64,000 bases of DNA from an uncultured virus (IMG/VR IMGVR_UViG_3300029967_000119) (Duplodnaviria; Heunggongvirae; Uroviricota; Caudoviricetes): the IMG/VR virus record IMGVR_UViG_3300029967_000119; one strand, 5' to 3'. The position numbers were made by a program, and so were the translations under genes. The notes beneath the pieces were generated by a model. That model searched no databases. It was given only the letters and a program-made list of their open reading frames with translations, and was not told the DNA's origin. Positions 1,093 through 63,034 of this stretch are shown piece after piece (position 1 is the stretch's first letter; each line of letters starts with the position of its first letter).

Positions 1093-1728
1093 ATGAGACA
1101 ACTTTCTTCAAAGTACAAGTGCTTTCCATACTATGACCAACTCCAGTTGCTTGAAGATGACACCAGGAGGAAAGTCATAGTGTGTGACTGTGATGGCATC
1201 TTGACTGATGGCACCTCAACATACTCTAGAGATGGGAAGGTGCTCAAGACTTATGGCTCTTATGACAAGGAGATGATGAGGTGGCTCCAAGAGCTTGGAT
1301 TTGAGTTCATCTTCTACACTTCTGACAACTTGGGATTTGACATACACAAGAAGAGGCTCCAAGACTTAGGCGTTGAGCTCAAGGTTGGCTATGTCAAAGA
1401 GAGGATCAAAGAGATACAAGACATCCATGCTGCAAACCCAGATGCATGGATTGCATACTTTGGAGACTCAATCTCAGACTTAGAGATTGGTGAGATGGAA
1501 GAAGTCAGCTTCTTTGGAGTGCCTGGCAATGCACCTGACTGGGTCAGGAAGTATGTGCTGATGCATTCTGACAATTCATGCAACAACTTAGCAGGCAAGA
1601 CTCACACCTGCTTAGAGCATGGCTCACATGGTGGATTTGCCAAGCTGTGTGAACGTGTAATTGAAGACTATTGGCACATTGACTTTTATAATCAGAAAGG
1701 AGAACCCACATATGATGAACGAGTTTAA
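1093..1728 (+). CDS. HAD-superfamily phosphatase, KdsC/YrbI-like
   Basis: HAD motif I DCDGILTDG, motif IV YFGDSISD, C-terminal GSHGGFAKLCE. Confidence 0.75.
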   Translation: MRQLSSKYKCFPYYDQLQLLEDDTRRKVIVCDCDGILTDGTSTYSRDGKVLKTYGSYDKEMMRWLQELGFEFIFYTSDNLGFDIHKKRLQDLGVELKVGYVKERIKEIQDIHAANPDAWIAYFGDSISDLEIGEMEEVSFFGVPGNAPDWVRKYVLMHSDNSCNNLAGKTHTCLEHGSHGGFAKLCERVIEDYWHIDFYNQKGEPTYDERV

Positions 1729-2806
1729 AGTAGGAACAAACTTTGATGAAGAGATCATAGACATTGCGGCACAGCTCAATGACAAGTACAGTGATCGCGG
1801 AAAGATAGTAGAGTTCTATGGGTCTGACAGGTCTCATGCAGCTTTGGCAGCTAGGCCAGACTTCAGGTTGCATGACATAACAGAAGAGCAGCTCAAGCAC
1901 TTTGTCAAGAAGGCGGCAGACAATGGCATGACCTTCAACTACACGATGAACTCGATATTCCCATACATGACTAAGTCTGAGCTTGTAGCTCACAAGCAAG
2001 AGATCCAAGACTGAGTCAAGAAGCTTGAAGACTTTGGTGTGTATCGGATCACCATTGCAACACCAATCATGGCGGCAATAGTCCGTGAGGTGTCAGACAT
2101 AGAGCTAGAGCTCTCGACCATAGCTCACATTGATGCGGTGTCTCAGATGAAGATATATTGGGAGTTGTTCCGCATCAACAAGTTCTGCGGCAACATCTTG
2201 AAGAACAGGAGCAAGCCGTTCTTGGTGAATGCTGCCAAGTGGTGCAATGAGCATAGTATCATATATGAGATGATGGCTCAAGAGTTCTGCTACAACACAG
2301 CAAAGTCTGGCCATTGCGCAACACACTGCATATTCCGTGACTCATGCTACATCTGCCATGCAGGCAACAAGACTAAGGAGGATGCTCTTGCATACGGCAA
2401 CTACCCAATGGGGTACTGCATTGGATCTCGTGAGAATGAAGAGGAAGGATGGCTCAAGAGCAGGTGGATTCGCCCAGAAGACTTGCACTATTACAATGAG
2501 ATAGGCATCAAGAACTTCAAGTTGACTGGCAGGACTGGCACATCAGAGTACATGAAGAAAGTCATGGAGGCATACATGTCACAGAGCTATGATGGCAACT
2601 TGCTTGAGCTCTGGAAGCCCCTTGAGACAATCTACAATGGGCAGGCAGAGAAAGACTGGAAGTCGGCATATGACATCCCAAACAAGAAGCTTGATGGGTT
2701 CATTGATCATTGGTTTGATGGGAATGGATTTGAGTGTGAGAATGAAGTGTGTGGAGAGACTTGCAACTACTGCCGTAAGTGGTGGCTCAACAAGTTAGCA
2801 CAATAA
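1712..2806 (+). CDS. peptidase U32 family protein (Fe-S, prephenate-dependent hydroxylase family), 364 aa with one TGA=Trp
   Basis: Track ORFs 1661-2014 and 2039-2806 are in one frame joined by TGA 2012-2014 (QEIQD-W-VKKLEDFGVYRITIATP); U32 motifs FNYTMN, ELSTIAHID, Cys cluster C..HCIFRDSCY, WIRPEDL, NFKLTGR. Confidence 0.85.
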
Positions 2807-2815
2807 GGAGGCAAC

Positions 2816-3928
2816 ATGGACAAGATGCAACTAGAGCTAGAGCCAATAGAGTTCTCTAACGGCTTCACATTGAACAATCTAGACATGTCAAGCAAGACAA
2901 GCTTGATAGACCACATGATAGTTGGGCCTTGTGCTGCGGAGTCAGAAGAGCAGGTGATGGAGACCGCAACACAGCTCAAAGGGCTTGGCTACAAGATGAT
3001 CAGAGCTGGTGTCTGGAAGCCACGCACATTGCCAGGAGCATTTGAAGGGCATGGTGAGAAAGCATTGAAGTGGTTGAGCAAAGTGCAAGAAGAGCTTGGG
3101 CTGCTTGTGTGCTGTGAAGTCGGCACTGCAGAGCATGTGAAGCTTGCTCTTGAGTATGGGGTTGACTTGCTCTGGATTGGCTCTCGGACATCAACCAACC
3201 CATTTGCAGTTGAGGAAGTTGGTGTTGCTCTTGATGGGCATGCCATCCCAGTCTTGGTGAAGAACCCAATGAACCCAGACTTGAACTTGTGGGTGGGCGC
3301 ACTCAAGAGGCTGAACAACCATGGCATCAAGAAGCTTGGAGCAATCCATCGTGGGTTTGGCTCATGCTCACCATCAGTCTACAGGAACCATCCAGGCTGG
3401 GCATTGCCAGTAGAGCTCAAGCAGATGTATGAGAGTTTGCCAATCCTTTGTGATCCATCACACATGGGTGGCAAGCGTGAGTATGTCCCAACTCTCTCAC
3501 AGACTGCTCTTGACCTTGGCATCTACTCTGGCTTCATGATTGAGAGCCACTGTGACCCAGACAGTGCATGGACTGACAAGAGCCAGCAGGTCACACCTTC
3601 TAACTTGGACTACATCGTCAGCTTGCTTGGTCCGCGCAAGCATACAGCAAGTGTAGATGCTTCATTGAATGCATGCCGGACAGAGATTGATGAGATTGAT
3701 GAAGAGATCCTCAACAGCATATCAAAGAGGATGAAAGTGTCTAGAGAGATTGGTGAGATCAAGAAGGGCCTCAAGATGCAGGTGTACCAGAATGACAGAT
3801 ACCTTGAAGTGCTTGACAAGATGAGCATATATGGGTCTTTGGTTGGGCTTGATGCTGGGTTTGTAGAGAACCTGTTCAAAGACATCCATAATGAGAGCAT
3901 CAAGCAGCAAATAGAGCTAGTTCAATAA
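2816..3928 (+). CDS. bifunctional DAHP synthase (class I) / chorismate mutase, Bacteroidota type
   Basis: GPCAAES, RAGVWKPRT, WIGSR, VLVKNP, HRGF, DPSH, IESH; C-terminal AroQ-type RTEIDEIDEEILNSISKRM. Confidence 0.92.
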   Translation: MDKMQLELEPIEFSNGFTLNNLDMSSKTSLIDHMIVGPCAAESEEQVMETATQLKGLGYKMIRAGVWKPRTLPGAFEGHGEKALKWLSKVQEELGLLVCCEVGTAEHVKLALEYGVDLLWIGSRTSTNPFAVEEVGVALDGHAIPVLVKNPMNPDLNLWVGALKRLNNHGIKKLGAIHRGFGSCSPSVYRNHPGWALPVELKQMYESLPILCDPSHMGGKREYVPTLSQTALDLGIYSGFMIESHCDPDSAWTDKSQQVTPSNLDYIVSLLGPRKHTASVDASLNACRTEIDEIDEEILNSISKRMKVSREIGEIKKGLKMQVYQNDRYLEVLDKMSIYGSLVGLDAGFVENLFKDIHNESIKQQIELVQ

Positions 3929-3932
3929 AGAT

Positions 3933-5234: not shown

Positions 5235-5943
5235 GCTAGAGAATGGATATGTGCCGACAATACCTCTGATGAAGAGGCTTGCTGGGCATTTGCACACAGT
5301 GCTTGAGCACAAGTGGCTGGTGTTCAAGTGGTGCTGCAAGCTTGGTATCCCTATGCAAGGCATTGCACATGACATGTCTAAGCTTGGCCCAACAGAGTTT
5401 TGGGAAGGTGTGAGATACTATCAAGGTGGATCATCACCAATACCAATCTGCAAGAAGTGGAACAACGGCTACTCAAGAGCATGGCAGCATCACAGGAGAG
5501 CATTGCATCACTATGAGGCATGGACTGACAACTATGACCTTGGCACTGTTGCCCACATGATGCCTTACAAGTATGCGCTAGAGCTCATTGCTGATTGGCT
5601 TGCAGCTGGTGAGACATATGCAAAGAACCAAGGCAAGAGCTTTGATCCTTATGACGAGATCACATGGTGGCAGAAGACAAGAGAGTCTAAGCGGGCTATG
5701 CATCCAGCTCTCAAGCAGTTTGCTGGGAATGCATTGCAGATCATTGCTGATGAAGAGTGGAAGAGCAAGAGAGAGTTGAGGAAAATGTTGAGAGATGCAT
5801 ACACTTGGGCTATAGAGAGGCGAGGCATAGAGCCATCACGCATTGAGAAGCACACAGTGAAGAAGTGGTGCAGGAATGAGGGGATGGAGGGCAAGTATGG
5901 TGAGTTTGCAACTTATATCAACAGAGACAAAGTCACAAGCTAA
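5227..5943 (+). CDS. HD-like domain protein (DUF5662-like)
   Basis: HLHTVLEHK...HDMSK..PTEF.E...Y...AWQHH...HHYEAW...MPYKYALELIADW. Confidence 0.7.
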   Translation: MHKLENGYVPTIPLMKRLAGHLHTVLEHKWLVFKWCCKLGIPMQGIAHDMSKLGPTEFWEGVRYYQGGSSPIPICKKWNNGYSRAWQHHRRALHHYEAWTDNYDLGTVAHMMPYKYALELIADWLAAGETYAKNQGKSFDPYDEITWWQKTRESKRAMHPALKQFAGNALQIIADEEWKSKRELRKMLRDAYTWAIERRGIEPSRIEKHTVKKWCRNEGMEGKYGEFATYINRDKVTS

Positions 5944-5956
5944 CGATACAAACATC

Positions 5957-6487
5957 ATGAAAAGTTTCTTAGACTTCTACAGAGAGACAAGCATCTCTAA
6001 GTACATCAAGCCAGAGACAATCAGGTTTGATGAGTTCAAAGGAGAAATCTATAGCACAGATGACTTGACTCTGTTCAGGCTGTCAAGCAACAACTTTGCA
6101 TCGAAGATCCTCTATGAGCCACAAGAGTTCAGCAGCAATGCAATCCACTACTGCAAAGATGATGGCTCCGTGCTCTATGAGGCAGATGAGATAGGGTACA
6201 TCGACTGGTGGGACCTCTATGACATCTTGACTGGGGATCCTAACAATGATGAAGGCTATGGGCTGTTTGAGAGCAGTGCACTTGCCAAGATGCATGAGTT
6301 TGGTGAGATGCTTGTGGAGTACTTCAAGGAAGCCCTTGACTACAGGAAGGATACACAGAAGACGGCTGAGAACATCAAAGATGGCTATGCTTGGATGGCA
6401 GAGCAGTCACAAACATGAGGTCCATCACCTATGTGGGAGACTGACACCACAGGCATGTATAGCAGCGTAGCTTGGGAACTAATCTAG
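5957..6487 (+). CDS. hypothetical protein, 176 aa with one TGA=Trp
   Basis: TGA 6416-6418 is followed in frame by GPSPMWETDTTGMYSSVAWELI and TAG 6485-6487, closing the gap to the next gene. Confidence 0.65.
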
Positions 6488-7302: not shown

Positions 7303-8454
7303 ATGGACATGCCTCCTGCTGCATCTCTGCAGCAACTCATAGACTCTTCTTCTATGCTCAAGTCTCTCTTTGAAGAGACGATTGCTTTGGCAAAGCACAC
7401 AAACCCAGATACAAAGACGAATCCAGCACAGACCCTTGAGCAGCTCTATGAGTATGTGGCATGGTCAGAGCACACATTGCCGAACATGCTGCTAAAGCAT
7501 GAGTCCTACTCTTCTCTCTATGACCACATAGACCAAGGTGTCGACTATCTCTATTGGCTGCTTGACCAGCCACTCAACATTGATGGTGACCCACTCAGCT
7601 TTTATTCGCAGTCTGTGCAGTACATCCCAGAAGTTGCAGAGTGGCTCAGAAGCTACTGCTGCTCTTGGGGATCATGGCTTTCAAGCTCAGAGTCATGGAA
7701 TAATCACGCTCTAGAGATGGTCAAGGCAGACCCGCACTTTAGCAAACATTTGCATGAGTATGAGGACTCTTCTAATTGGCACTCATTCAATGACTTCTTT
7801 TCACGGAGGCTTGCAAGCCCTAGTGTACGGCCTGTCTCCGCTCCAAGTGATGTCACTTCAGTTGTGAGCCCTGTAGATGGGTGCTGCCAAGGGCAATGGC
7901 ACATTGGTCCTGATGGGCAGATAGAAGGATTGTCGGTGAAGTCAAGGAGGTTTGGGAGCATAGATGAGCTGGTTGGAGGAGATGCATTCTATGAAGATCT
8001 CTTCCACAATGGTGAGCTCACACACATCTTCTTGGACATAGATGACTACCATCGCTATCACTTCCCAGTTGATGGAGATGTAGAGCAGTGTTGGCTGCTG
8101 CCAGGCGGCACGTTCGGTGGAGGCACTTACAGATGGGACTCATTGAGGCAGAAGTATTGGCTTGACTGTTGGGAGCCTGGATGGGAGAGCATAGAGACAC
8201 GTAGGTGTGTGCTCATAGATGCTGGTGAGATTGGCTATGTTGTCTGCTTGCCAGTTGGCATGTCACAGATCGCTTCGGTCAATCTCTCATTCAGAGATTG
8301 GTCTGTGCACAAAGGAGATGAGATGGGCTACTTCCTGTTTGGTGGCAGCGACTTTGTGTTGGTGTTCCAAGAGAAGGCACACTTCAAGCTGCTTGCTCCC
8401 CAAGGACAGCACGTCTCTATGGGAGAGCTGATTGGGTCCTGCACTGTCAAGTAG
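7303..8454 (+). CDS. psd: phosphatidylserine decarboxylase proenzyme
   Basis: SFNDFFSRRL, VSPVDG, DYHRYHFPVDG, KGDEMGYFLFGGSD (GS autocleavage site). Confidence 0.88.
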   Translation: MDMPPAASLQQLIDSSSMLKSLFEETIALAKHTNPDTKTNPAQTLEQLYEYVAWSEHTLPNMLLKHESYSSLYDHIDQGVDYLYWLLDQPLNIDGDPLSFYSQSVQYIPEVAEWLRSYCCSWGSWLSSSESWNNHALEMVKADPHFSKHLHEYEDSSNWHSFNDFFSRRLASPSVRPVSAPSDVTSVVSPVDGCCQGQWHIGPDGQIEGLSVKSRRFGSIDELVGGDAFYEDLFHNGELTHIFLDIDDYHRYHFPVDGDVEQCWLLPGGTFGGGTYRWDSLRQKYWLDCWEPGWESIETRRCVLIDAGEIGYVVCLPVGMSQIASVNLSFRDWSVHKGDEMGYFLFGGSDFVLVFQEKAHFKLLAPQGQHVSMGELIGSCTVK

Positions 8455-11576: not shown

Positions 11577-12284
11577 CTAAGACTTTGTCTTTTCTTCAAA
11601 GAGCCCTTCTTCATCATCAAACTCAAAGCTCTGCTGGCTCTGCCACTCAGCAAACTCTTGCCTAAGCTTTGGTTCTCTTATATATTCAGGAAGCATTCTC
11701 CACTCATTCTTCTCATCATCCTTTCCAAGGTTCTTGATGATAGCACCAGCATGCCTAGAGGCAAACTTCAAAGCTTCAATGTCACTCATCCCGTTTGCCT
11801 TGGCTTCATTGTACCAGAGGATGCTCTCCCAATATCCATCATTGTCTGGCCACTTGCCATCTTCAGGAACTATTGAGCACACATTCCACCATGTGAATGC
11901 AAAGCCAAACAACACTATGGTGAACTGGCCAGGAAACTCATATCTATAAGAGTCATATTTAGTCTTCCACATCACATCAAAGTTGAAGACATGAAATGAG
12001 AGCCAGATAGGCAGCTTGTAAGTTGGCTTGAAGTGCTTTGCAATGAATGGATGTCTTGTCTTGTATGATTCTGTCCATTCATACTCTGGAATGTAGAGAT
12101 GCTTGTTGTCTGTTGACTCTCTATAATCCTTAGAGTACTTGCCAAGCCTGATGATAGGGCCACGTCTCCAGACTGGAAGCCCAGGAGAGTTCCTCCAGCT
12201 CCTGAAGCAATGCACAATCCTTGGTCGGACAAAGACATTCTTTGTCTTCTTCCAAAGGTTGTTCATCTTGATGATGCTCTTCAT
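11577..12284 (-). CDS. hypothetical Trp-rich protein
   Basis: ORF with 13 Trp, all TGG; likely start ATG 12284. Confidence 0.7.
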   Translation of the reverse strand: MKSIIKMNNLWKKTKNVFVRPRIVHCFRSWRNSPGLPVWRRGPIIRLGKYSKDYRESTDNKHLYIPEYEWTESYKTRHPFIAKHFKPTYKLPIWLSFHVFNFDVMWKTKYDSYRYEFPGQFTIVLFGFAFTWWNVCSIVPEDGKWPDNDGYWESILWYNEAKANGMSDIEALKFASRHAGAIIKNLGKDDEKNEWRMLPEYIREPKLRQEFAEWQSQQSFEFDDEEGLFEEKTKS

Positions 12285-12288
12285 CTTG

Positions 12289-12657
12289 CTACTTCTTGTC
12301 TTCAAACTTGATCTCCTTGGCAAGGACCTCAGTGATGAGTGAGAGGTTCTCTTTCACCTGGCTGTAGATGTCAACTTTGACATCCACGCCTTCCTTAGGT
12401 GGCCAAGTAGACACTATCATCTCATACTCACACTTGCTCCACCAACGATACTGTGCTTCACGGTTCACCCATGCTTCAAGCTCTTTCATTGTGGAAGGCT
12501 GTGGCAGACTTTTGTTTGATGCAGAGTCAAATCCCCAATATGCTTTCTTCTTGCCTGCATTGTGCTTCCAGGTATCAGCAAGAGGCTCTATGACATCAAA
12601 TGGCTCAGGCTTAGAAGCATTGAATGGCCAATAGAATACATTGAACTTGTGTTTCAT
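12289..12657 (-). CDS. hypothetical phage protein
   Basis: 122-aa ORF, motif YRWWSKCEYEMIVSTWPP...KVDIYSQV. Confidence 0.75.
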   Translation of the reverse strand: MKHKFNVFYWPFNASKPEPFDVIEPLADTWKHNAGKKKAYWGFDSASNKSLPQPSTMKELEAWVNREAQYRWWSKCEYEMIVSTWPPKEGVDVKVDIYSQVKENLSLITEVLAKEIKFEDKK

Positions 12658-12700
12658 GATTTTATGTCTTTAAAGGTCAAACTTGTCCTGTCTTTCAAAA

Positions 12701-12729
12701 ATTATAAGGCAAGAACAGAAGAAAGTCTT
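12701..12729 (-). promoter_or_regulatory. sigma70-like promoter AAGACT-N17-TATAAT
   Basis: Minus-strand sequence upstream of gene 12657; same pattern precedes the tRNA and tmRNA. Confidence 0.5.
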
Positions 12730-12743
12730 TAGAGAAGAGACTA

Positions 12744-12784
12744 AAAAAATAAGGATTACTTAAATTAAAAGTTTAAGTAATCCT
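12744..12784 (-). terminator. intrinsic terminator downstream of the tRNA gene
   Basis: 13-bp perfect stem AGGATTACTTAAA/TTTAAGTAATCCT followed on the minus strand by TATTTTTTT. Confidence 0.8.
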
Positions 12785-12799
12785 CATTTTTAATAAATG

Positions 12800-12892
12800 C
12801 GAGGGTGCTACGATTCGAACATAGATCTATGGTTTTGGAGACCATCTTTACGGTTTTGAAGACCGTTGTCTTGCCAATTAGACGACACCCCC
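12800..12892 (-). tRNA. atypical 93-nt tRNA-Trp-like gene with two tandem anticodon arms: UCA (UGA suppressor) and CCA (Trp)
   Basis: Minus strand: GGGGGTG TC GTCT-AATTGGCA-AGAC A ACGGT-CTTCAAA-ACCGT AAAG ATGGT-CTCCAAA-ACCAT AGAT CTATG-TTCGAAT-CGTAG CACCCTC G; 7-bp acceptor, 4-bp D stem, canonical T loop, G73 discriminator, CCA end not encoded. Confidence 0.92.
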
Positions 12893-12910
12893 ATTTTGTA
12901 AACTTCTATT

Positions 12911-12938
12911 ATTATAAAAGAACTCTTCTAAATGTCTA
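12911..12938 (-). promoter_or_regulatory. sigma70-like promoter for the tRNA, TAGACA-N16-TATAAT
   Basis: Minus strand TAGACAtttagaagagttctttTATAAT ending 18 nt before the tRNA 5' end. Confidence 0.55.
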
Positions 12939-13830
12939 TCTTACGTTTTAATTTCCAGCCATCTTTTAAGAAATTATCAAGATCTTTTTTATAGACCATC
13001 TTAGATATATTATCTTTATGTATCCACGCTTTTCCTTGGGCCGCTTCTATTACTTTATCTGATGCTGGAAGATATCTACCCTTCTTTCATCCTTCATTTT
13101 CTCATAAAGCTAAGTCTTCTTTCTTTATCTTCTTGTTTTCTTTTCCTTTATTGACTCAACATGTACCTCATTGTGAATTTGTTTTTCCTTGTTGATGATT
13201 AGTCTTTAAAAAAGTCTCGTGTTGTTTCTTCTTTGTTTCTTCTGAGTGCTTTCTTCCAACTCAGACATGTTTTAATTCTCCACTAATATATCTTGGGTCA
13301 TCAACTTCTACAAGAAAATGATTGTTATTTTTATCTTTAACTATAAGACGATGACCATCTGTAAATTCTCCATTAAGATATCTAGGGTCATTTGAATCTA
13401 TTAATCTATAATTTCCATCTTTATCTTTGACTTGTTTATATCCCTTCAAAAGAGACTTGTATTTTTTGTTTTTATTAGATCGAAACTCATCACAAGAAAT
13501 CAGCTTAATCTCATCTCCTTCTTTCACCCAAGTCATCCCAATGTTTCCTCAACAATCTCCACCTAATCTCATATTATAGCAGTTCTTGTCTTCAACTAAA
13601 GTTTCATTCACAACTTCAGCCTCATACATTGATGCTTCTTTTCTTGTCTTAAAAAACTTCAATATCTCTTTTGAAAAATTCTCAATCCCATATCTTTGAT
13701 ATGCTTCATGAAGTCGAAGCCCAGATCCCATATATCCATCTTCTAGATCATCTGTTGAATGAATCCCAAAATAAAAATGCCCATTGACTTTGTTTGAAAT
13801 CTTATAAAAATAATTATATTTCTTTTTCAT
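12928..13830 (-). CDS. GIY-YIG (Seg-like) free-standing homing endonuclease with NUMOD-like repeats, 300 aa with six TGA=Trp
   Basis: YFYKISNKVNGHFYFGIHST...YMGSG...YGIENFSKEIL...YNMRLGG; frame continues through TGA at 13549, 13261, 13168, 13156, 13102, 13087 to TAG 12928; includes GRKHSEETKKK and GKTNSQWGTCWVN. Confidence 0.88.
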
Positions 13831-13883
13831 AAAATGTGCGTTCGATATAATTTCAATTATTTATCAAACCCACACTTAATTTT

Positions 13884-14702: not shown

Positions 14703-14711
14703 GTCATCATT

Positions 14712-15143
14712 CTATTGCCAGTAGCTGACGATGTCTTGCACAATCCACTTAGTCACTGTGCTCAAGATGTATGCAAATGCTTCAGAGTCATCATCAGAGC
14801 ATTGGATGCCACAGTCAGCGCAGAGCATCACTGCAATGTGTGCAGCTTCATGGGATGCAATCTGCGCAATGCTTGCTTCACTCATGTCTGTTGGCTTCTG
14901 TACCATCAAGAACATGTAGCCGTAGTCACCTACACCTCTAGAAGTGTCTGTGAGCTTTGTTACCTTGAGGGTTGATGCAACATTGCCAACCCCAGCTACC
15001 TGCACTTTGTTGCCTGTTGTGGTGTCAAAGAAAGTCCCATCAAGCATAGATGAGATCTCTTTAGGAGTGCTTCCAAATGCTATATAAAGCTTTCGTGGGA
15101 ACACCACAAAATCATGTGTGTATGTCTTCGCTTCTTTCATCAT
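14712..15143 (-). CDS. hypothetical protein with HExxH zincin-like motif
   Basis: IASHEAAH...SEAFAY. Confidence 0.65.
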   Translation of the reverse strand: MMKEAKTYTHDFVVFPRKLYIAFGSTPKEISSMLDGTFFDTTTGNKVQVAGVGNVASTLKVTKLTDTSRGVGDYGYMFLMVQKPTDMSEASIAQIASHEAAHIAVMLCADCGIQCSDDDSEAFAYILSTVTKWIVQDIVSYWQ

Positions 15144-15149
15144 CTTCTT

Positions 15150-15692: not shown

Positions 15693-15695
15693 TTT

Positions 15696-16373: not shown

Positions 16374-16374
16374 C

Positions 16375-16962: not shown

Positions 16963-17013
16963 GATTTTGTAAGTTATTGTATCAAAATTTATATGTGAAA
17001 CCTTGCTGCCTTT

Positions 17014-47517: not shown

Positions 47518-50500
47518 TTATCTGGTGATTTTGAATGTTGGATAGAACTTCCTATTTGTGTAGTCTGAAATTGTCACTGTCAATATGATTTCATCATTGA
47601 TGTTCTCATACTCCGACTCATAGTTATCTACAACATTCCAGTTAGCATCAAAGTCTTCTGGGAATGTGTAACTCAGCTCAAAGTCTTGGTTAGTCTGTCC
47701 ATAAGTCTTAGAGTAGAGAGTGAAGTTCTTCTTGTCTGTTATGTCAAAGTACTTGAGCAATGACATCTTGATGTAGTTCTTGATGTATACATCATTATTG
47801 ATTGTGAAGAGCTCACTCCAGTTGTCTGTGAACTTCGGACATGACTCCATGAAGTATTTATAGAGTATCTGAGTAAGGTTCAGCCTGAGCTCTACTGCCC
47901 TAGTGTTTGCAGAGTTGACATTGTAAGTCTGGTCTACATATGAGGAAGTCACATATGTAGGGTATTCCCAGTCAGTTATGTCAACATAGTCATCATTCAG
48001 TACGATGCACTTAGAGCCAAACATAGAGCGGTCTTCTACACCTGGCACGTATCCATTCACATAGCTCCAGGTGTTATCATCAGTGTACTGCCTATAGTAG
48101 TGGTAGTCTCAGTTAGATGCAACAAGTGACCTAGAGTTGAGCATAAAGTAGTTGATGCTTGTAGATGTGTCTGAAGCTGTGAAAGTCTTCATGTTCCATG
48201 GGTTCTCTATAGCTTCAATGCTCTTCATGTGTGTGTTAGAGAGAGTGAAGTTAGAAGAAGCTGTGAGGATGAGAGAAGAGTCTTCATGAGTCTCATAGTT
48301 CACCAAGTTATAAGTCTGGACGTCAAAGTAGCCAGCATTGTACTTGATGTGTGATGGTGTAGTCGTGGTGATTATGATAGGAATGTAGTCTTCATCTATG
48401 TGCTCTACTGTCACACCATTGTTGATGATGTACAAGTCAAATGACTTTGTGAAGCTCTCTTTGTATCTCTCTAAGATATCTCCATTGCTTGTGTCTATGG
48501 CTTCAGATGGAGCGGTGACAGAGTATGAAGTCTGTCCAATGTAGCCACTCTCATTCTTCAAGTTGAGAGCATTGTCAGACACCATACATTCTCCATCAGA
48601 AGTGTTCACTATGTTGTACTTCTCATCTTCAAGATAGTTGATGAATATCTTCTGATTCCAGAGTGATGTGTCTTCAACATTGAACCAAGCGGTGTAGTTG
48701 TCTTTGTTGAGCACTTCTTCTGTGCTTGCATCTGCATCAAGGTAGTCAATCTCTATTAAAGTCTCTGTCTCACTGAGCAACATGTCTTTAGAGTTGCTCT
48801 TGACTACCTGAGCAAAGAGGGTTGTTGAGTCACCAAATGCATGCTCAAAGTCTATGTAGTATGGGTTCTTATGCCAAGCATACTGGTCACTCACAACTTC
48901 AAATGATGTCTTGCCAGACTTGATGATTGTGTCATTCTGGTTGCAAGTCTTGGTCTTGAAGTTGTGGTTGATGAACAAGATGAGCTTCTCTTCTACAGAG
49001 ACATACATCTCATTGTTAGTTGCTTCATCATAGTCATTCACAATGAAGATCTCAAAGTTGTTGTATTCATTGAGTCGTATTGTGTTGATGTACTTGTTGT
49101 CTGTGAATGAGAATGACACCTTGATTCCATAGAAGATGCATTCAAGTGTCTCTGTGTACTTGTTGTAGTAGACATTAGTGCTTGACTTGATGTTGCTTTC
49201 TGCAAGGACTTCCCTAATCTTGTATCCACCCAAGATGGCTTCTTTGATAGAGATTGCTCCTGCACTTGTGTCTATTGTGTCATCAAGGTCACATGACATG
49301 TACCATGGGCTTGTCTTCTTGTCAGATGTCTCAACAAACATCCCAGATCCAGAAGCAATCTTCTCTTGGTAGCTTGAGTCAAGAGCTGCATTCACATCAA
49401 GTGTCTGGTTTACATCATAGTAAGTTCCAAGAGCATTCCACTGTGTGCAAGCTTGCACTGTGATTGGAATCTGCAAGTCACTGTTGTAGATGTCATTCGG
49501 GTCTGCATAGCAGTTCATTGCCTTGAGCTCTGGTGAAGTCCAAGAGAATGCTGTCACTTCATCATTGCTAGAAGTGAGCATCTTCAGGATCACATCACTA
49601 TCAACTGTGAGACTCAGCCTTGTGAGCTGTGTTGATGAGTCTCCATTGTGCAAGACCATGCTCTCATCAATGTAGAATGAAGTGCATGGCAGCATGTCAG
49701 ACTCTTCAAAGGCCCCAGATGAGAGAGTGTAGATTGTGTTAGTCACAAGCATGCCCGGTGCACCATCAAATGTGATGACATCACCAGCATTCCAACTCAT
49801 TGATGCATCATTGCTTACAAGTGTGGTCTCTACATAGTTGATGCGAGTGTCAATGTCTTTGAAGTTGAGCATGCCCATCAATGAGAAATCATGTGCAAGA
49901 GGAGTGTGCAATTTCATGTGGATTGTGTCAGACAATGCATATGGCATGCTGACCATGCCTCTCTCACAGTCAAGAGGAGACATGATGATGTTGCATTCCT
50001 TGTCAATCTCTTCTATCAGCTCTGCTTCTTGCAAGTCATCAAGTGAAGGTATGTTAGAGTAAGCCTTGTATTCATTGATCTTGAAGTCATTAGCTGGCCA
50101 ATACCCATCAGAGCACTTTCCAAGCAAGACTTTGTACTGGTCTTTGAATGCTCAGTCAAACTGGTACATGTGCTCTTCTATGTCAATGAACTTGACAATG
50201 CTTGTAAGTCTCCATCCCAAGATCTCAAACCCATAAGGAGCAAACACCTTGATGTCATCTGAGTAGTATGATGTGCTGTAGCAAAGTGGGTGCAGCTCAT
50301 AAGTCAAGTCTTTCTTGAAGTATGAGATGTAGTCAAGCCCACAGTCTGCGCTGTAGTCCACTACAAGATGGTCTTCATCTGTCCAAGTGAGAGAGGCATC
50401 AAGTATGTCTGATGTGATGTGTTGAAACCAGGTGTTCTCAAAGTTAGAGATGATAGCTATCTGGTCTTCTGTCACATCACTCACATAGAAGTCTGAGTTG

Positions 50501-52692
50501 AACTTCTTGATGCAAGCCGCAATCCTCTTCAGCTGCTCTTCAAGTGGGGCCTGCTTAGAGTGATCTTCTAAGTCCTGTGTGTAGAATGCAAGCCTGTACA
50601 CTGTCGGCCATTCTTCATCCTTGCCTATTGCATTGTTCTTGTCACCATAGAGATCATTGTCTGTGTCATAGAGAGCTTTGCTGATCTTCAGCGTCCTGTT
50701 CTCATTGAACAAGTCCTCTTCACCTTCAATGACTCCCATTGCAACCTCAGTGAGCTGGTTGGAGAACTGGTAGTCTTCCATCTTCTCAACTTTTGGAGGC
50801 TCAGCAAGCAAGTCAGTGTGGTGGTAGATTGAAGGGTCTTCAAGCACAGTCTCAAGATACTCTTCAGTGCTCCTGAAGATGAGCTCTTTCTTTGGAAGTG
50901 AAGACCTCTTGTTGATCTGCACATATGGGAAGATGCAAGACTCTGTGTTGGCAAGCCGTTCATCATTAGATGCAATGATCTCATAAACATATGAGTGCTT
51001 GCTCTTGTCAGACCATGTGAAGTGGTCTCTCACACAGATCCTGAAATGCTCACCATAGTGGATTGGCTCTGTGAAGTGCATCGTCACAAATGACTTTGCA
51101 TCTGTCAAGTCTGTGAGCTCTTCACCTCTGGCATTGATGACATTCTTGTTTGGCTTGTTGATGACTCTCTTTTGCAAAGCATTGTTGTAGTCACCTATCT
51201 CTTTGAGCCTAGAAGCGGAGTTGTTGTCAACTTCAAAGAACATCCTGTCTTGCCAGCTCTCTTCCTTGAGCACATCTTCTATCTTGTCGCTGTCATCTAC
51301 AAGGTTCCAGCCACTGTCATACTTCTCAAGAGAGACCTTCACATCATTGCTTCTCTTGATTACCGCATTATACTTCCAGATTGCATTCTCCTTGAGATAG
51401 AGCCCAAAGTACTTGTGCATCTCATATGTCTCTGACTCTGGATCATTGAACATGAACTCAAGGTTGAGGATGTTAGGATAGATGAGGTTGTTGCGCTCAA
51501 AGCCATTCACAAGGAACATGTCATACCGTTCCTGTGTAGCTGTAGGGTCTGTGAGGATCTTGTTGGCAAAGTAAGATGTCTCTTGCTTTGATGTGATGAC
51601 TCCCCTGTCAAGTGCAATGCCAGTCCACACATTTGTGCCAGTCTTGTACTTGCTTGAGACATCTTCTGGGTCTCTGTCTTGCTCTATGAACTGCAAGCTG
51701 ACTGGAGCGACTATGTCATTGAGCTCCTTTGCATAGCTGTTGATGTACTTGCCAACAGCCGTCCAGTTGCGTAAGTCAAAGCACTTAACCATCTTGCCAT
51801 TAGCGAGCAATGACTTGAAAGTCTCATTGTCATCAAGAGTACCACTGTATGTGCTTGCATTGAAGTGCTCATCTACTCTGAAGATGCAGAAGAAGTCTGG
51901 CACCACATCATTGACATAGAGAGGTGCAAAGACCCTCATGTTCTCTGTGTACAAGAAGTCATCATTAGTCTCAGCCCCATACTCATATATAGTCTGGTAT
52001 TGGTCGGAGTAGTCAACAGAGTTCTTTCTTGGGTTGAGTGCACCATCTGGCAGCTTGTATATCTCACCAAGTGGAAGAGATGAGAACACTCTCTTCACAT
52101 CATGTGGATAGTCACCAGTGTAGTCTACTTCCTGGTGCCTGTAGTTGTTGTTGCTCAAGAGATGAGAGACCTTGATTGTGTCAAGGTACATGTTGCCATT
52201 CTCTGTGACTACAAGCTTGATGTTGCCAGTGAGCTTAGGATTCGTCTTTGCAAGAGCAAATGAAGCAAGCTTTGTGTTGATTGGCACAGACTGGTCATTC
52301 TCATACCACTTGTATGAAGGTGTGACTTTCCTCAAGATGAGGGTGTCTTGCTCCAGCTCTTGCCCATCGACTTCAAGTGAGAGCTTGAATGTCAGAGACT
52401 CTGAGAATGGCTCAAGCATGTTGAAGAAGAACAAGAGCTTGTTGCCATCATTAGAGACACTAGCAGTGAAGTCATGAATCTTCCATGATGCAAGCTGTCC
52501 ATTCACAATGTTTCGAATGACATTGACATTTGCACCATTGACTAAGAGCTTGCTCTCAAGCCAAATGGCAAGCTCATCTGTGAGCTCATTGCTCAAGCTC
52601 AAGATCATCTTTGCAGACTTTGCATCTGGCTTGTAGAGCTTCTTTATGTCAATGAGCAATGTGTCATTTGCTCTATCTAAGAAAAACGTCAT
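47518..52692 (-). CDS. very large putative virion protein, 1724 aa with two TGA=Trp
   Basis: Track ORFs 50152-52692, 48109-50127, 47518-48060 joined by TGA 50152 and 48109; ends TAA. Confidence 0.85.
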
Positions 52693-52695: not shown

Positions 52696-54183
52696 CTACT
52701 TTGCTTCTTTTGAGACAGATCGACTATATGAGTCTATGAATGAATCCCAGTTGTTCTTTGCATCTTCCCAAGTTCATCTTCTCTTGTATCCTGCATCTTG
52801 CATCTCATCATACATCTTGTTGAAGTCTTTGTATGATGGCTTTGATGATATGCTGTCTTCATTTCCAATGTAGGAGCCATCAAGTGCCTTTATCATGACA
52901 ATCACAGCGGCCCATGTCTGTGGCACTGTGTTCACCATGACTTCTATGAAGTAGTTCATGGTCTCACCAGCTGTGAACTCTCTCAAGAACTCAGGCTGGT
53001 CTTGCTCAACCTTGTTGTATGTTTGATTCCAGAGCTGCTTGAGCTTAGGCAAGTTGACGCGAATCTTCCTGCTGTGCATCGAAGCGGCTTTGCCAATCTT
53101 TGTGTTTGACTCCGGTGTAGAAGCTTGTCTCTCAAGCTCTGATGTGATGAATGTATTCACACTCTCACGAAGCTTGTCCATCCTAGTGTTCAGAGCTTGT
53201 GCACAGACATACTTCTCTCTTGACTTGTTGTTGAAAACTTTCTTTATGTTGTTAGAGATGCTTGACCAAATCTGCTTCCAGTCATCTTCAACATTCCCAT
53301 CATTGTCTTTGTCTTTGAGCATCTTGAATGCATCATCAATCTTGAATGGGTCTGCTGAGCTGTAGCTGTTGTCACCAACATTTGCTTGCAAGAGCCTGTA
53401 TGCTGCAGTTGTAGTCACATTGAGATACTCAAGCATGTCTTGTGCAACTTCTTTCTTCTTTGCATCAAGCTCTTCAATGCCAATGCTCTCCATCTCTTTG
53501 TCAAAGTTGTTGACCCCAGCATCACCACTACTTTCCTTGTTTGAGCGGCCACCAAGTATATCAATTTCAGCAGTCTTGTCATTCTCTAAGAGGAGCTCTG
53601 CAAGCTTGCTATATGTAATGAAACTCTCTTGGACATGTCTTCCTATTGATGCATCTTTCAATCTCCAGCTATCAATACTCCCATTCTGGTTGATTGTTCC
53701 TCTTGTGAACTTGTCTTGGTCGGGCTTTCCAACAACATTGCTCTTCACATTTTTTGAGTTCATCTCAGTGAAGAACTTCTCAATATAGTCTATCATTGAA
53801 GAGCTTTGGAACAGCTTCTGAGCATAGTTCTCAGTGTTCTGTATAGCATTCTGAGGGTCAAAGACAAAGTGGTTCAAACCAAACACCTTTCCACCACGGC
53901 TTCTGCGCACTGGCTTCATAATTTGGTTGTAGTTAGTTGGCCTCTTTATCTTGTTGATGTGGATGCTAGGCAATGCTTTGGGTGATGCAACATTTGGATC
54001 CTTAGATGCAAGAGCCTTCAGCTTTGCATCATCAGAGCTTGCAAGCACTTCAGAGTTGAGAGTCTCTCACTTGTTGTCTGGGGTATTGCAAATCACCCTT
54101 CCATTAGGATATTCATTGATTGTCTTGTTTCCTATCATCCAGCTTCCATTGCTGAACTTGACTTGTACGTTATTCTGTGCCAT
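52696..54183 (-). CDS. hypothetical protein, 495 aa with two TGA=Trp
   Basis: ATG 54183 (MAQNNVQVKF), TGA 54067 and 52774, TAG 52696 abutting the next start. Confidence 0.8.
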
Positions 54184-55531
54184 CAGTCTCTTCTGTATAT
54201 TGTGTCTCTATTGGTTCCCACTCAAGGTCACGATTCCTATACACACATCTATAGAACTTCGTGTCTTTGTCTATGATGTTGCCATCATCGTCATACTTGT
54301 ATATGATGCAGATGTCTCCAACATTCCTGCCTTCGATGTTGTATGGGTCAGTGTGCTTAGCTGCTTCTTGCTCTTTGCTATGTACATCTAAGATTTCTTG
54401 GAGGTCTTCAGCGCTCTTCATCCATCTTCACTCACCATCATATATGACTACAAAGAATGTGTTGTCACCACTTCCAGCAAGCTTAGAGCTTGGTGCACCA
54501 TCAACTATGACATTCATTCCAACTAATGCATCCCATTCAGACTTGTATGAATTAGTCCTAGTCTCACCAACTTTGCGCCCAAACCACCTGTCATCAACCT
54601 TATAGATGAATATGTCATCTTTCTTTACTTGCTCTCCAAGAATCTTGCTTGTATCATTTACATCTTCTGGCTTTGATGGCCCTTCCTTTGCAATCCTTTC
54701 AATCTCTTCTTTGATGTCATCATTGGTGATTGTCTCTCATCTTGGCGCTTCATTGCCATCTCCTGCATAATATCTGTAGACTTGTGATCTTGTGAGAATT
54801 TTTCCATCTTCATCTATTGCTTTGATCTCCTTCAGACCATCAACTCAAACCTTCTCAACTGCTGTTCCTTCTTCACCAACATACCTTACAACATATCCTT
54901 TCTCTTTCTCTCTTGCTTGATATATTATTGCGTCACTTCTCTTCACAGTCTCTCCATTGATCTCCATTCCTGCTTCCACTGTCTGTGGGGTCACAGGAAG
55001 AAGCCTCTTTATCTCAGCAGCAAAGCCTTCATATCCAACGACTGTATATTGCCAGCCATTCTCATTCTTCTCAACACTGAACACTGTGTTAACTTTATTG
55101 CGCAACACCTTGTACTTATTGTCAATGATCCCTCTAGCTTGGAGGATTGTGATGTGGTTTTTGTCAACTGTCTCTACAGCTTCCTTGCCAAGGATGACTT
55201 TCACATAGCATCGGTTGCTGTCATCATACCAAACAAAGATGTCATTCTTCTGTACTCGATACGACATTCCAGATTCTTCATCCCCTCCAATGATACTACC
55301 AAGAACTATGTGATCTGGGCCACCTTGATCTCTGTCTTCATCTTCAATCACAGTGGAGACATCAAGATGTGTTGCAACTTCTTCATCTTTGTCTTGCTTT
55401 GGCTGTTGTGCTTGTTGCACCGGCTGTGGAGCAACTCTATCAGGTGGGGATACAATCATGTTGTCATCTTCAAAGACTAAGTCTATCCGCTTGCCTTTGT
55501 AATACATTATGCTTTCATCAGTATGCTTCAT
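54170..55531 (-). CDS. hypothetical protein with repeated 'V.K.DIF/GDICI' units, about 453 aa with three TGA=Trp
   Basis: Track ORFs 54845-55537 and 54170-54421 joined through TGA 54845, 54737, 54428 with no TAA/TAG in between. Confidence 0.8.
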
Positions 55532-55550
55532 CTTCAATTCGAATGCCTTT

Positions 55551-56066
55551 TTAGATGCCCATCATCTCTCTGAGCTGCTCAGTCTGCACAAGGAGTGCAC
55601 GGCTAGAGCCAGCTACATTAGATGCAAATGACTCCTTGTCTTTGTCAGTCTCAGAGTAATTCCATGTGGACCAAAGCTTCCCATCATTCTTGTAGTTAGA
55701 AGTGTTCTTTGACTTCCCCTTTCCACCACGGTCGTTGCCAAACTCCGTCCAATACACAGCTCTAGACATGAGGTTCTTGAGCTTGCGTAGTGCCACTGCT
55801 CCACCTATTGCTCCAAATGCACCAAAGATGAGGCCAAGCACCCCACCAAACAATGCAAAGAGCCCACCTTCAATCTTGCCAAGCCCTCTGAGAGGATCCA
55901 TCACTGTATAGTTGTTTGCTCCTGCATGGAAGTCATCTTCATTGAGGTGCTGTGCATTCCTGTCTCTAGAGAGATCATCTTCAAATGCCGTGCCTTTGAG
56001 CCAATGCTCTTGCAACTCTTCTGGGCTCATCAATGAGAGGCGCTCATATGACAGTCTCTTGTCCAT
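55551..56066 (-). CDS. hypothetical protein with a Gly-rich hydrophobic segment
   Basis: GGLFALFGGVLGLIFGAFGAIGGAVAL. Confidence 0.7.
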   Translation of the reverse strand: MDKRLSYERLSLMSPEELQEHWLKGTAFEDDLSRDRNAQHLNEDDFHAGANNYTVMDPLRGLGKIEGGLFALFGGVLGLIFGAFGAIGGAVALRKLKNLMSRAVYWTEFGNDRGGKGKSKNTSNYKNDGKLWSTWNYSETDKDKESFASNVAGSSRALLVQTEQLREMMGI

Positions 56067-61371: not shown

Positions 61372-61378
61372 GTGCTCT

Positions 61379-62473
61379 TTATATGCTGTCTATTGAGTTG
61401 AGTGCTGTGAAATAGTTCTCATTGAGGGATTTGATCCGTTCCATCTGCCTCTCATCTGCATCTATAGATGAGATCAATGAAGACACAACATCTTTCAGAG
61501 AGACCTTCTCTATGTTGATGTCTAGTGTATCTGTGAGAGCTTTGCCATTGCTTCTCATGATGATTGACACTTTCTTGGCGCCTAAGTCTTGTATCTTCTT
61601 GTAGATTGTTGCCATGTTTGGTGTGTCATCTACAATGATGTCAACATAGTTGTGTGAGAAGATCTTCTTCAAGCTCTCATCATCCATCTTGGAGAACTCA
61701 TCAAATGAGATCTGCAAGAAGAGTGGAGAGACTTTGTTCTCTTTGAATGCTGCTTTGCCTGTTGCAACTTCAAGGATATACACACCTTTCTCATTGCCAA
61801 TGTCAGATCTGTTCAACTGGTATGGGCATCCAACATAAGTCACCTTCTTGGTCTGCTGCCTCTTGTGGATGTGCCCTGCATAGATGTGCCCAGTAAATGA
61901 ATCTACATTGACTCCACTTATCACCTTCTGGTTGTTTGCATACTTCATCTTGTTGATGTCTGTGTGCATGAAAGCATAGTCAGCATTTGCATTCTCTACC
62001 AAACACTTAGTCTCTTCAGTTGCAGACCCAAGGTATGGGATTGCTATACCAACTTTCCCTTCTGGGAAGTTGATCCTTGTCGGTGTACAAATCACAGTGA
62101 CATTGGGGATGAACTCTAAGCTTTTGAGTGAAGTCACACCAACATTTGTGCGTCTGTACAAGTCATGGTTCCCGTTGATGATGACAGTTGGCAGCACTTC
62201 TGCAACTTCTGCAAACATTGTGATTGCAAAGTCATTGACTGCAAGGTTGAGGCTCTTTCTATCATCAAACACATCTCCAAGCACAAGCAGCCCAACCTTC
62301 TTCTGAGCTCTCTCTCCTCTCTTGACTTCTTCTTTGCAAAGTGAGATGAAGAAGCTGTCTGCCCACTCTTTCATGTTTGCCACTCACTCTTCACTAGAGC
62401 CTCTCACACCAAAGTGCAAGTCAGCTATCATCAAGACTGTGTCAAAGTTGAGATCTATTGTTGGCAATCCCAT
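61379..62473 (-). CDS. SbcD/Mre11-like nuclease (T4 gp47-like), 364 aa with one TGA=Trp
   Basis: Motif I ADLHFG lies upstream of TGA 62384 (GVRGSSEE-W-VANM); LGDVFD, GNHD, GHIH; start ATG 62473. Confidence 0.92.
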
Positions 62474-62476
62474 CTT

Positions 62477-63034
62477 CTAGAACATCTTATATGTTTTTGC
62501 AAAGTCCATTGCAGACACATGCATGCCATTCTCATATATGTCTTGGCAAATCTCAGCAAGCATCTTTGGACTCAACACACTGCTCACGATGTACTCATAG
62601 CTGAAGTTGAAGAACTCATTTATAGCTATAGTTGCATTGAGCGCTGTCACCCCACTCATCTTCTCAAGCTTCTCCTTCACATAGTAGAACACTTCAAAGA
62701 TGCTCTTCTTTGGTATCTTCTTTATAGTCCCATCAGGGTTTGTGTACTGCTCTCTGTATGGAGACTTCTTTCAAATCTCTAGCACCTGCAGAGATATGTC
62801 TTTCATCTCATCTTCATCATAGAGTGTCGGCTCATAGTCATCGACATACTCTGAAGCGAGCACTATCTTTGTGTTCCTAGCATAAGTCATGTCTACACTT
62901 GCATCAGTGTAAGCATGGAGAGACTTCATTGTGTTGATGCGCTTCCTCACACTAGGATCAGGTGTGCCTTGTGCAGAAGAGTCTGCTGCAGCAAGCGACA
63001 CATCTATGGTTGCATCAATTGATGGTTGTTCCAT
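62477..63034 (-). CDS. hypothetical protein, 185 aa with one TGA=Trp
   Basis: Track ORFs 62771-63034 and 62477-62692 joined in frame by TGA 62771. Confidence 0.75.

Follow-up and report, generated by a model that had tools for sequence, protein, structure and literature searches.

Genes that carry TGA in frame

We analyzed a 64,000-nucleotide stretch of DNA from an uncultured virus of the Caudoviricetes (IMG/VR record IMGVR_UViG_3300029967_000119; the whole stretch is referred to here as the window), in which open reading frames (ORFs) are interrupted by TGA codons and in which a tRNA with the anticodon UCA is encoded. We consider it very probable that TGA serves as a tryptophan (Trp) sense codon in this phage, that only TAA and TAG end its genes, and that its own tRNA(UCA) decodes TGA, likely after being charged by the tryptophanyl-tRNA synthetase (TrpRS) of the host. 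The ORFs that carry TGA are listed below; residues are given in one-letter code, sizes in amino acids (aa), and Lak-B6 is a Lak megaphage of Prevotella that we translated with TAG as glutamine (TAG=Q).

1712-2806 (+), U32-family peptidase-like protein; one TGA (2012), crossed by a single stretch of phrog_5757 (8.2e-122)
5876-6487 (+), ORF with TGA 6416 near its TAG end, either stop or sense; frame continuity
12928-13830 (-), GIY-YIG homing endonuclease; six TGAs (13551, 13263, 13170, 13158, 13104, 13089); phrog_314 (2.5e-33)
28042-29052 (-), DUF7487 homing endonuclease, flanked by the two topoisomerase II genes; five TGAs (29040, 28908, 28815, 28797, 28713); Pfam, PHROG, paralogue alignment
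30891-31970 (-), second DUF7487 homing endonuclease; one TGA (31850) in a variable column; Pfam, PHROG, paralogue alignment
34167-35580 (-), TnpB-like gene in two frames (34990-35580 and 34167-34976); TGAs 35331 and 34172
36143-36841 (+), RuvC-like resolvase; two TGAs (36758, 36794); 61 homologues; Lak-B6 has Y and W
36851-41185 (+), 1444-aa virion-block ORF; three TGAs (37160, 39434, 40709); BLASTP to Lak-B6
41855-46462 (-), 1535-aa virion-block ORF; three TGAs (46060, 45919, 42424)
47518-52692 (-), 1724-aa virion-block ORF; two TGAs (50154, 48111); tblastn to 15 Lak records
52696-54183 (-), 495-aa ORF; two TGAs (54069, 52776); frame continuity only
54170-55600 (-), ORF; three TGAs (54847, 54739, 54430); frame continuity only
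61379-62473 (-), SbcD/Mre11 nuclease; one TGA (62386, residue 30), crossed by a single stretch of phrog_100 (8.2e-50)
62477-63034 (-), 185-aa ORF; one TGA (62773); the Lak-B6 homologue has W

Our first gene model comprised 52 genes, 12 of which contain 31 in-frame TGAs in total, compared with 319 TGG codons. In the extended model of 53 ORFs, 5876-6487 gains its C-terminal part and 34167-34976 its TGA-TAA end, and the TnpB-like N-terminal ORF 34990-35580 is included; this model holds 34 in-frame TGAs in 15 ORFs. Because TGAs 55564, 29040 and 6416 hinge on the choice of a start or an end, the count ranges from 31 to 34 TGAs in 12 to 15 ORFs; the fourth TGA of ORF 54170-55600 (55564) probably lies upstream of the true start near position 55531. 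This range agrees with the original prediction, made from the sequence alone, of about 33 in-frame TGAs in 15 genes, and its claim that genes end in TAA or TAG also held: all 52 ORFs having a stop end in TAA (27) or TAG (25), none in TGA, with the ends at 6416 and 34172 being ambiguous. In-frame TAA or TAG codons are absent from the gene models.

Reading frames across TGA

When greedy ORF sets were compared, the standard reading (code 11) yielded 74 ORFs with a mean length of 270 aa and a coding density of 0.935, while reading TGA as sense (code 4) yielded 58 ORFs of 353 aa on average at a density of 0.955. The corresponding values were 71 ORFs, 278 aa and 0.920 for TAG as sense (code 15), a lowered density that is at odds with TAG recoding of the Lak type, and 74 ORFs, 273 aa and 0.942 for TAA as sense. 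The lengthening of ORFs comes from TGA as sense only, and the density comparison thus bears out the original prediction. Among 58 long code-11 ORFs, 13 end in TGA, and the frame beyond stays open for a median of 157 codons, compared with 17 and 18 codons beyond TAG-ended (n=21) and TAA-ended (n=24) ORFs, respectively; since six of the 21 TAG-ended ORFs also have a long same-frame open stretch beyond, this statistic is not decisive alone.

One uninterrupted stretch of a PHROG hidden Markov model (HMM) runs across TGA in the peptidase-like, SbcD and GIY-YIG proteins (phrog_5757, phrog_100 and phrog_314). The three giant virion-block ORFs, which are visible only under code 4, each have a single-ORF counterpart in Lak-B6 under TAG=Q. 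Residues 699-1444 of the 1444-aa ORF form a single BLASTP high-scoring pair (1e-54) with a 961-aa Lak-B6 ORF (L178 3872-6757), in which TGA 39434 aligns with Y and 40709 with W; outside this pair, TGA 37160 aligns with Q. The Lak-B6 counterpart of the N-terminal part is a separate 886-aa ORF, and this frame may be a fusion or two genes whose boundary is not at a TGA. Collinear matches on either side of the TGAs connect the 1535-aa ORF to a 1302-aa Lak-B6 ORF (L178 7896-11804; TGA 42424 aligns with L), and the orthologues of the 1724-aa ORF are single ORFs in both Lak-B6 (L001 52-6141) and Lak-C1, where TGA 48111 corresponds to W in both phages and TGA 50154 to L.

These matches reflect a more general relationship. 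In a tblastn search of phage records with the 1724-aa ORF, 30 records were matched, 15 of them Prevotella Lak megaphages, nine of which align over 84% of the query with an identity of 32-33%; the remaining 15 comprise phages of Tenacibaculum, Chryseobacterium and Sphingomonas (two) as well as six uncultured ones. Twenty-four of 52 window proteins match Lak-B6 at E <= 1e-5 (23-61% identity), and window positions 36143-58346 are collinear with the virion block at 355-379 kb of Lak-B6. The GC content is 44% in the window and 24-27% in two 20-kb stretches of Lak-B6. A megablast search of phage records with positions 36000-60900 returned no match and hence no near-identical phage record, and single-protein searches of IMG/VR for related loci (SbcD; peptidase) confirmed no relatives. 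Judged by these homologies, the window is part of a large phage that is distantly related to the Prevotella Lak megaphages and has a higher GC content.

Could the TGAs nevertheless be real stops, with the split genes being small genes, pseudogenes or assembly errors under the standard code? Even under code 11 the density is high (0.935, compared with 0.955 for code 4), a third of neighbouring genes will be in the same frame by chance, as the six TAG-ended ORFs with a long open frame beyond illustrate, and public gene callers do cut at TGA. Yet frames are broken by TGA only, conserved W columns lie exactly at the TGAs (see below), and the TGAs are spanned by uninterrupted HMM matches as well as by single Lak ORFs. 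Essential motifs moreover lie on both sides, where the original prediction had placed them: ADLHFG of Mre11/SbcD is upstream of TGA 62386-62384, and DDIVDSY of RuvC is downstream of TGA 36758, between it and TGA 36794. We therefore regard the standard code as extremely improbable for these genes.

Public gene calls of the phage or of close relatives are cut at TGA (P0241, P0363 and P0375): the SbcD entry P0241 (331 aa) begins after residue 30, the RuvC entry P0363 (205 aa) ends at residue 205, and a RuvC fragment that is 71% identical ends at the position of the second TGA. Annotation pipelines need code 4 for this phage.

The amino acid read at TGA

As a guard against bias, TGA was translated as X in the homology searches, with the exception of the RuvC representative search, which was conducted under code 4. 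All 120 listed homologues were aligned for the peptidase column. The SbcD alignment holds 68 of 120 listed homologues, two near-identical entries with an N-terminal truncation and 50 from a large group of very similar 389-aa proteins having been left out; that of the GIY-YIG protein holds 112 of 120, without eight near-identical 297-aa entries; and that of RuvC holds 61 of 128 matches, without a 100%-identical TGA-cut entry, two two-stretch or partial matches and all matches weaker than 4e-11.

Ten deep columns (61-120 homologues) were obtained in this way; six of them have W as the majority residue, three have Y and one has L. All 68 SbcD homologues have W, as does Lak-B6. The six GIY-YIG columns contain W 56/110, W 92/112, Y 94/112, W 112/112, Y 87/112 and W 98/112. 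RuvC residue 206 is Y in 37, W in 15, F in eight and L in one of the 61 homologues, and the 71%-identical RuvC fragment has W at the position of TGA 36758; residue 218 is W in 41, F in 17, H in one and Y in one, with one gap. The peptidase column (120 homologues) is mixed, with L63 F41 Y10 W3 T2 Q1, and the nearest relative, 95% identical, has W. Over the first eight columns, the summed log-odds were +23.6 bits for W, -6.3 for Y, -9.0 for F and -32.8 for L, with the rest lower. At ten TGA positions of single-copy genes, Lak-B6 has W in five, Y in two, L in two and Q in one case; its W codons here are TGG, since TGA is a stop in Lak. When the homing endonucleases are compared with their Lak paralogues, one column is aromatic and four vary; the aromatic site is residue 49 of the DUF7487 protein 28042-29052, where the Lak-B6 paralogues have Y/Y/Y/F/F. 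In sequence searches of the PDB, SbcD matches were too distant to be of use for the TGA column, and the peptidase had no match.

The sequence also contains an internal reference to the amino acid, as the original prediction had pointed out: the first repeat of the GIY-YIG protein reads GTC-X-VNK and EG-X-KKGR, with TGA at X, and the second reads GKA-W-IHK and DG-W-KLKR, with TGG. Together with the homologue columns, most of which have W as the majority residue, and the single-ORF orthologues across TGAs, this upholds the prediction that TGA means Trp; as read from the alignments, TGA codes for Trp, though some of these sites can at times hold a different bulky residue.

A reading of TGA as selenocysteine (Sec), glycine (code 25), cysteine, or leucine or serine would find some footing in the 'SeC' label that ARAGORN gives to the UCA tRNA, in the long extra arm of this tRNA (leucine or serine being possible), in the mostly L/F column of the U32 peptidase and in the two Lak columns with L. 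The column log-odds speak for W by about 30 bits, with L at -32.8, S at -44.6, C at -47.5 and G outside the best eight; 31-34 Sec codons in ordinary genes would lack precedent, and the body of the tRNA, described below, is not of the Sec type. This leaves the alternative amino acids with next to no probability. On the strength of the column statistics, we reject Sec, Gly, Cys, Leu and Ser as candidates for the residue at TGA.

Uneven use of TGA and its sequence context

TGA accounts for about 10% of the Trp codons of the window and is absent from 38 of the 53 ORFs. Its share, TGA/(TGA+TGG), differs strongly between classes of ORFs, the last of which leaves it nearly unused:

Three homing endonucleases, 0.57 (12/21)
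Two TnpB-like parts, 0.25 (2/8)
Ten virion-block ORFs, 0.12 (14/117)
Other 38 ORFs, 0.03 (6/209)

Recoding is thus light and uneven: the homing endonucleases are heavily recoded, the large virion genes moderately, and replication and metabolic genes hardly at all, although TGAs also occur beyond the virion block in SbcD, RuvC and a peptidase. The original prediction had called the recoding genome-wide. This stands in so far as the code applies within the window, but most ORFs make no use of it. The uneven use may fit the published idea that such a phage starts out on the code of its host and needs a suppressor for its late genes.

This pattern bears on the possibility that the host itself is a code-4 bacterium, which the phage merely follows, with the tRNA as an accessory. 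The host is known only by inference from relatives, which leaves room for such a scenario; but these relatives infect Bacteroidota, or Sphingomonas in two cases, and a TGA share of only about 10%, the many TGA-free ORFs and a GC content of 44% do not suit it. Partial recoding of late genes together with a suppressor tRNA is, in the preprint of Borges et al. (bioRxiv 10.1101/2021.08.26.457843), the pattern of phages in standard-code hosts. We judge a code-4 host to be very unlikely.

The base that follows TGA is also unevenly distributed. It is G in 22, A in eight, C in two and T in two of the 34 cases (purine in 30/34), while after TGG (n=321) it is G in 64, A in 118, C in 72 and T in 67 (G vs non-G, Fisher p = 1.3e-7). 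This bias would point to selection, namely for surroundings in which suppression wins out against release, or to a mutational route from TGGG. It could also be taken to mean that TGA has a dual role: after production of the suppressor it would in most cases be read as Trp, yet it would end or throttle some genes; TGA 6416, which precedes a TAG by 22 codons, and TGA 34172, which is directly followed by TAA, would be candidates for such a role. Homology-defined gene ends, however, never are TGA, and the bias is missing in four heavily recoded phages. A dual role, which would be compatible with TGA as a Trp codon, seems to us improbable, but less so than the other alternatives.

A tRNA(UCA) with a second anticodon-like arm

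The original prediction had assigned the decoding of TGA to a tRNA at about position 12800. This tRNA is present, with the anticodon UCA, and a putative promoter lies upstream:

12799-12892 (-), candidate suppressor tRNA(UCA) of 94 nt; 'tRNA-SeC' in ARAGORN, 53 bits with Rfam RF00005
12911-12938 (-), sigma-70-like promoter match (TAGACA, 16 nt, TATAAT; 11/12), ending 19 nt upstream of the tRNA

The tRNA body consists of a 7-bp acceptor stem, a 4-bp D stem, a T arm and the discriminator base G; no CCA end is encoded. The decoding arm (ACGGU/ACCGU) carries the loop CUUCAAA with the anticodon UCA and is followed by the spacer AAAG. It is succeeded by an extra arm of 5 bp (AUGGU/ACCAU) with the loop CUCCAAA, which contains CCA, and the spacer AGAU. 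The extra arm nearly duplicates the tRNA's own anticodon arm, with CCA replacing UCA, a feature that the original prediction had not mentioned. In the Rfam alignment, the first arm is the anticodon arm and the second is a 22-nt insertion in the variable region (25 nt in total), and the minimum free energy fold has five arms.

Despite its ARAGORN label, the tRNA does not have the build of a tRNA-Sec: it has a 7+5 branch and a 4-bp D stem, as against 13 bp (8+5) and 6 bp, and the general tRNA model RF00005 outscored the Sec model of the same clan. G73 is an identity element of tRNA-Trp, and bacterial TrpRS reads the CCA anticodon together with G73. Of the canonical features of tRNA-Trp, the discriminator G is present, while the decoding arm has UCA, not CCA, and the variable loop is not short. 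The promoter match comes from a consensus scan in which the total number of sites was not above that in shuffled sequences, and is thus weak evidence; an AT-rich hairpin (12752-12784) lies downstream of the tRNA. A search of IMG/VR for an exact 36-nt piece of the tRNA gave no match, and a look-up of public sequencing runs containing positions 12000-21999 listed neither DNA nor RNA runs.

The tRNA-Trp(CCA) of Lak-B6 (L013:2113-2204, +) is 92 nt long, and the loop of its 8-bp extra arm does not resemble that of an anticodon arm. In the 28 pieces into which Lak-B6 was divided, ARAGORN detected a UUA tRNA but none with CUA.

A class of two-armed tRNAs in other phages

The tRNA of the window belongs to a class with a common build. 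The UCA arm begins one base past the D stem; a spacer of 3-6 nt, a stem of about 5 bp with the loop N-U-C-C-A-A-A and a spacer of 3-4 nt ahead of the T arm follow, and the discriminator is G. A pattern scan of IMG/VR with both loops fixed returned 84 stretches; from these and two more from another search, ARAGORN read 26 as two-armed tRNAs, 17 of them distinct. A second scan of IMG/VR fixed only the D-arm motif and the UCA loop and yielded 49 loci with 38 distinct tRNAs. Of these, 28 possess a long variable region, which in every case contains N-U-C-C-A-(A/U)-A (18 CUCCAAA, eight GUCCAAA, one UUCCAAA and one GUCCAUA); eight have an ordinary variable loop of 4-5 nt, and two (one sequence) were not sorted by the script. 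The discriminator is G in all 36 sorted tRNAs.

We aligned 35 distinct long-armed members (that of the window and 34 others) and found covariation in all five helices: 93.0% of the cells pair, compared with 72.0% after shuffling and 34-49% in slid controls, and none of 500 shuffles reached any of the five measures. In the extra arm, 87.9% of the cells pair, and all four counted pairs change on both sides. Discriminator G is present in 35/35 members. Since the source scans fixed the loops, loop conservation in this alignment proves nothing; it rests on the second scan, in which the second loop was free.

We tested coding density on four other contigs with a two-armed tRNA, taking 2 x 20 kb from each. 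All four are TGA-recoded: the density rose from 0.47-0.91 (code 11) to 0.88-0.98 (code 4), with no comparable rise under code 15; Lak-B6, as the positive control, gave 0.48-0.54 under code 11 and 0.94-0.99 under code 15. The 2.5-kb flanks of the other two-armed tRNAs are tRNA arrays, in which code 4 and code 15 gained alike. A search for the TrpRS family PF00579, with a control that was positive in 14/14 genomes, found no member in ten records with a two-armed tRNA, one of which is 100% and another 91% complete. It found none in five records with short-armed UCA tRNAs either; these are mostly fragments, and the contrast of 0/5 with 0/10 does not discriminate.

A scan of 185,579 species genomes returned 91 stretches, 28 of them within a tRNA. 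Seven of the 28 are of the phage build and are situated on contigs of metagenome-assembled genomes, and 21 look like selC tRNAs (L181-L262), with a longer acceptor and D stem and a GUCCAAA loop in the extra arm; most of these hardly differ from one another, and they belong to a few related lineages, chiefly Caulobacterales-type genomes, with some other bacteria as well. A UCCAAA extra-arm loop can accordingly arise in the Sec lineage, and the ARAGORN label does not separate the two kinds. The selC-like GUCCAAA loops call for caution in pattern searches for the phage tRNA class.

Other features of the window

PHROG and Pfam scans of the window revealed the gene set of a large tailed phage. It comprises two topoisomerase II subunits, an NAD-dependent DNA ligase, an RNA ligase, SbcC, SbcD, a DnaB-like helicase and a RuvC-like resolvase; a ClpP-type protease, a sigma factor, a DNA end protector, a tail-fibre-like protein and three homing endonucleases were found as well. 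No terminase gene is located within the window. Three metabolic genes are host-like:

2816-3928 (+), DAHP synthase fused to chorismate mutase (aromatic amino-acid pathway)
7303-8454 (+), phosphatidylserine decarboxylase
1712-2806 (+), the U32-family peptidase-like protein

The two DUF7487 paralogues are 33% identical and flank the gene for the large subunit of topoisomerase II; Lak-B6 has at least five such paralogues. The TnpB-like gene is 49% identical to the Lak-B6 copy; its overlapping frames change near 34976-34990, a layout that may reflect a frameshift, a pseudogene or an arrangement as two ORFs. Positions 23133-23932 and 35581-36142 contain no convincing ORF under either code, and the latter is the place where gene strand and GC skew switch.

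A transfer-messenger RNA (tmRNA) is encoded at 24643-25042 (-) (Rfam, 146.9 bits; tag ADNSYALAA, TAA end), and a ClpP-family protease at 15696-16415 (-) (Pfam, 2e-73). Such a pairing of tagging and subsequent degradation would suit suppressor read-through of host UGA stops. In the 28 pieces of Lak-B6, ARAGORN found no tmRNA.

Proposed decoding of TGA and charging of the tRNA

We propose that the phage enters a host with the standard code, where its TGA-free genes could be expressed at once. The tRNA(UCA) would be made from its putative own promoter, would be charged with Trp by the TrpRS of the host, and would then allow TGAs to be read in the virion genes, the endonucleases and a few others. 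Host TrpRS is the candidate charging enzyme because no phage TrpRS was found in the window or in its relatives. The role of the tRNA at 12799-12892 as decoder, the standard code of the host and charging by host TrpRS are all presumed steps in this scheme.

Most simply, the extra arm with its CCA loop would serve as an added identity handle for host TrpRS; codon reading and the naming of the amino acid would then fall to two separate arms. Somewhat speculatively, and with a confidence clearly lower than that in the decoding of TGA as Trp, we suggest that the extra arm could be a natural pseudo-anticodon, presenting U-C-C-A-A-A to the anticodon-binding domain of host TrpRS and leaving the UCA arm free for UGA. 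Presentation might occur from the position of the variable arm, or via an alternative fold that places the extra arm at the position of the anticodon arm.

Several points weigh against the scheme or parts of it. Nine TGAs have no homologue column, and among the well-populated columns three have a majority of Y and one a majority of L; such positions tolerate other bulky residues, yet no other single residue comes close to W as the reading of TGA. True termination may occur at TGAs 6416 and 34172. The host and its code are deduced only from the hosts of relatives (Bacteroidota; Sphingomonas twice), and PHROG and Pfam scans found no release-factor or synthetase gene within the window. Finally, short-armed UCA tRNAs with the same body occur without a TrpRS in the five, mostly fragmentary, records mentioned above, so that the extra arm would not be indispensable for charging.

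Comparison with known systems

Recoding of TGA to Trp in phages has already been published (Borges et al., bioRxiv 10.1101/2021.08.26.457843), and code-4 gut phages with a suppressor tRNA(UCA) are known from the crAss-like, Jade and Agate clades (Borges et al., 10.1101/2021.08.26.457843; Yutin et al., PMC7886860). The published record also includes phages that recode TAG to Gln, the presence of suppressor tRNAs in 35-40% of genomes with recoding, a bias toward late genes and close phage relatives with differing codes. Borges et al. further cite work according to which UGA suppressors are tryptophanylated in Escherichia coli (10.1101/2021.08.26.457843). The recoding in the window is one more example of these TGA-to-Trp phages; its decoder tRNA is the less ordinary part. 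Like the code-4 gut phages, the window has TGA at W positions, a UCA tRNA, more use of TGA in virion than in replication genes and a presumed standard-code host. Unlike in those phages, recoding is much lighter here, the lineage is Lak-related, and the window lacks the TrpRS or RF1 of a 'code change module'. The parts of the two code-4 phage papers accessible to us do not mention a CCA-loop extra arm, and tRNAs of this kind may be present, though not remarked upon, in the tRNA tables of Borges et al.

The window resembles the Lak megaphages of Prevotella, reportedly described by Devoto and colleagues in 2019, in its many homologous proteins and its syntenic virion block. Genomes of about 470-660 kb are characteristic of the Lak clade. 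Lak phages read TAG as Gln and use TGA as a stop; here, in contrast, 25 ORFs have TAG as their stop, and TGA serves as a sense codon. According to Crisci et al. 2021 (PMC8346664), TAG recoding occurs throughout Lak, with the deepest branches unrecoded. As judged from its ORFs and homologue columns, the phage studied here recodes TGA and not TAG, and a relative of the TAG-recoding Lak phages thus makes use of the other stop codon; the choice of code therefore switched within this deep lineage. The light and uneven stage of recoding, together with the strong preference for G after TGA, may show early or constrained recoding.

The tRNA shares with bacterial tRNA-Sec (selC) the UCA anticodon, a long extra arm, the discriminator G and the ARAGORN 'SeC' label. 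It differs in its acceptor stem (7 bp, not 8) and its D stem (4 bp, not 6), and the columns at TGA have W, not Cys or Sec.

The closest parallel to the extra arm is an engineered one. Mukai 2020 (PMC7590224) reports that 'pseudo-anticodon' V-arm tRNAs raised aminoacylation in E. coli reporter assays. In our search of the literature, tRNAs with a second anticodon-like arm were found as engineered molecules only, none being natural, with subscription journals and supplements largely outside the coverage. As in the tRNAs of Mukai, the variable arm holds a hairpin that imitates an anticodon arm and that in the engineered case recruits the anticodon-binding domain of a synthetase. That system is synthetic and serves histidine, with HisRS fused to an extra binding domain and with allo-tRNA scaffolds; the tRNA of the window is natural, would serve Trp and presumably relies on unmodified host TrpRS. 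A conserved class of tRNAs that keeps a copy of the Trp anticodon hairpin leads us to propose a way in which host TrpRS could serve a new codon. If this holds true, amino-acid identity would be uncoupled from the codon read; it would explain by what means recoded phages achieve efficient charging of their stop-codon readers by host synthetases that are unmodified, and would offer synthetic biology a ready design principle.

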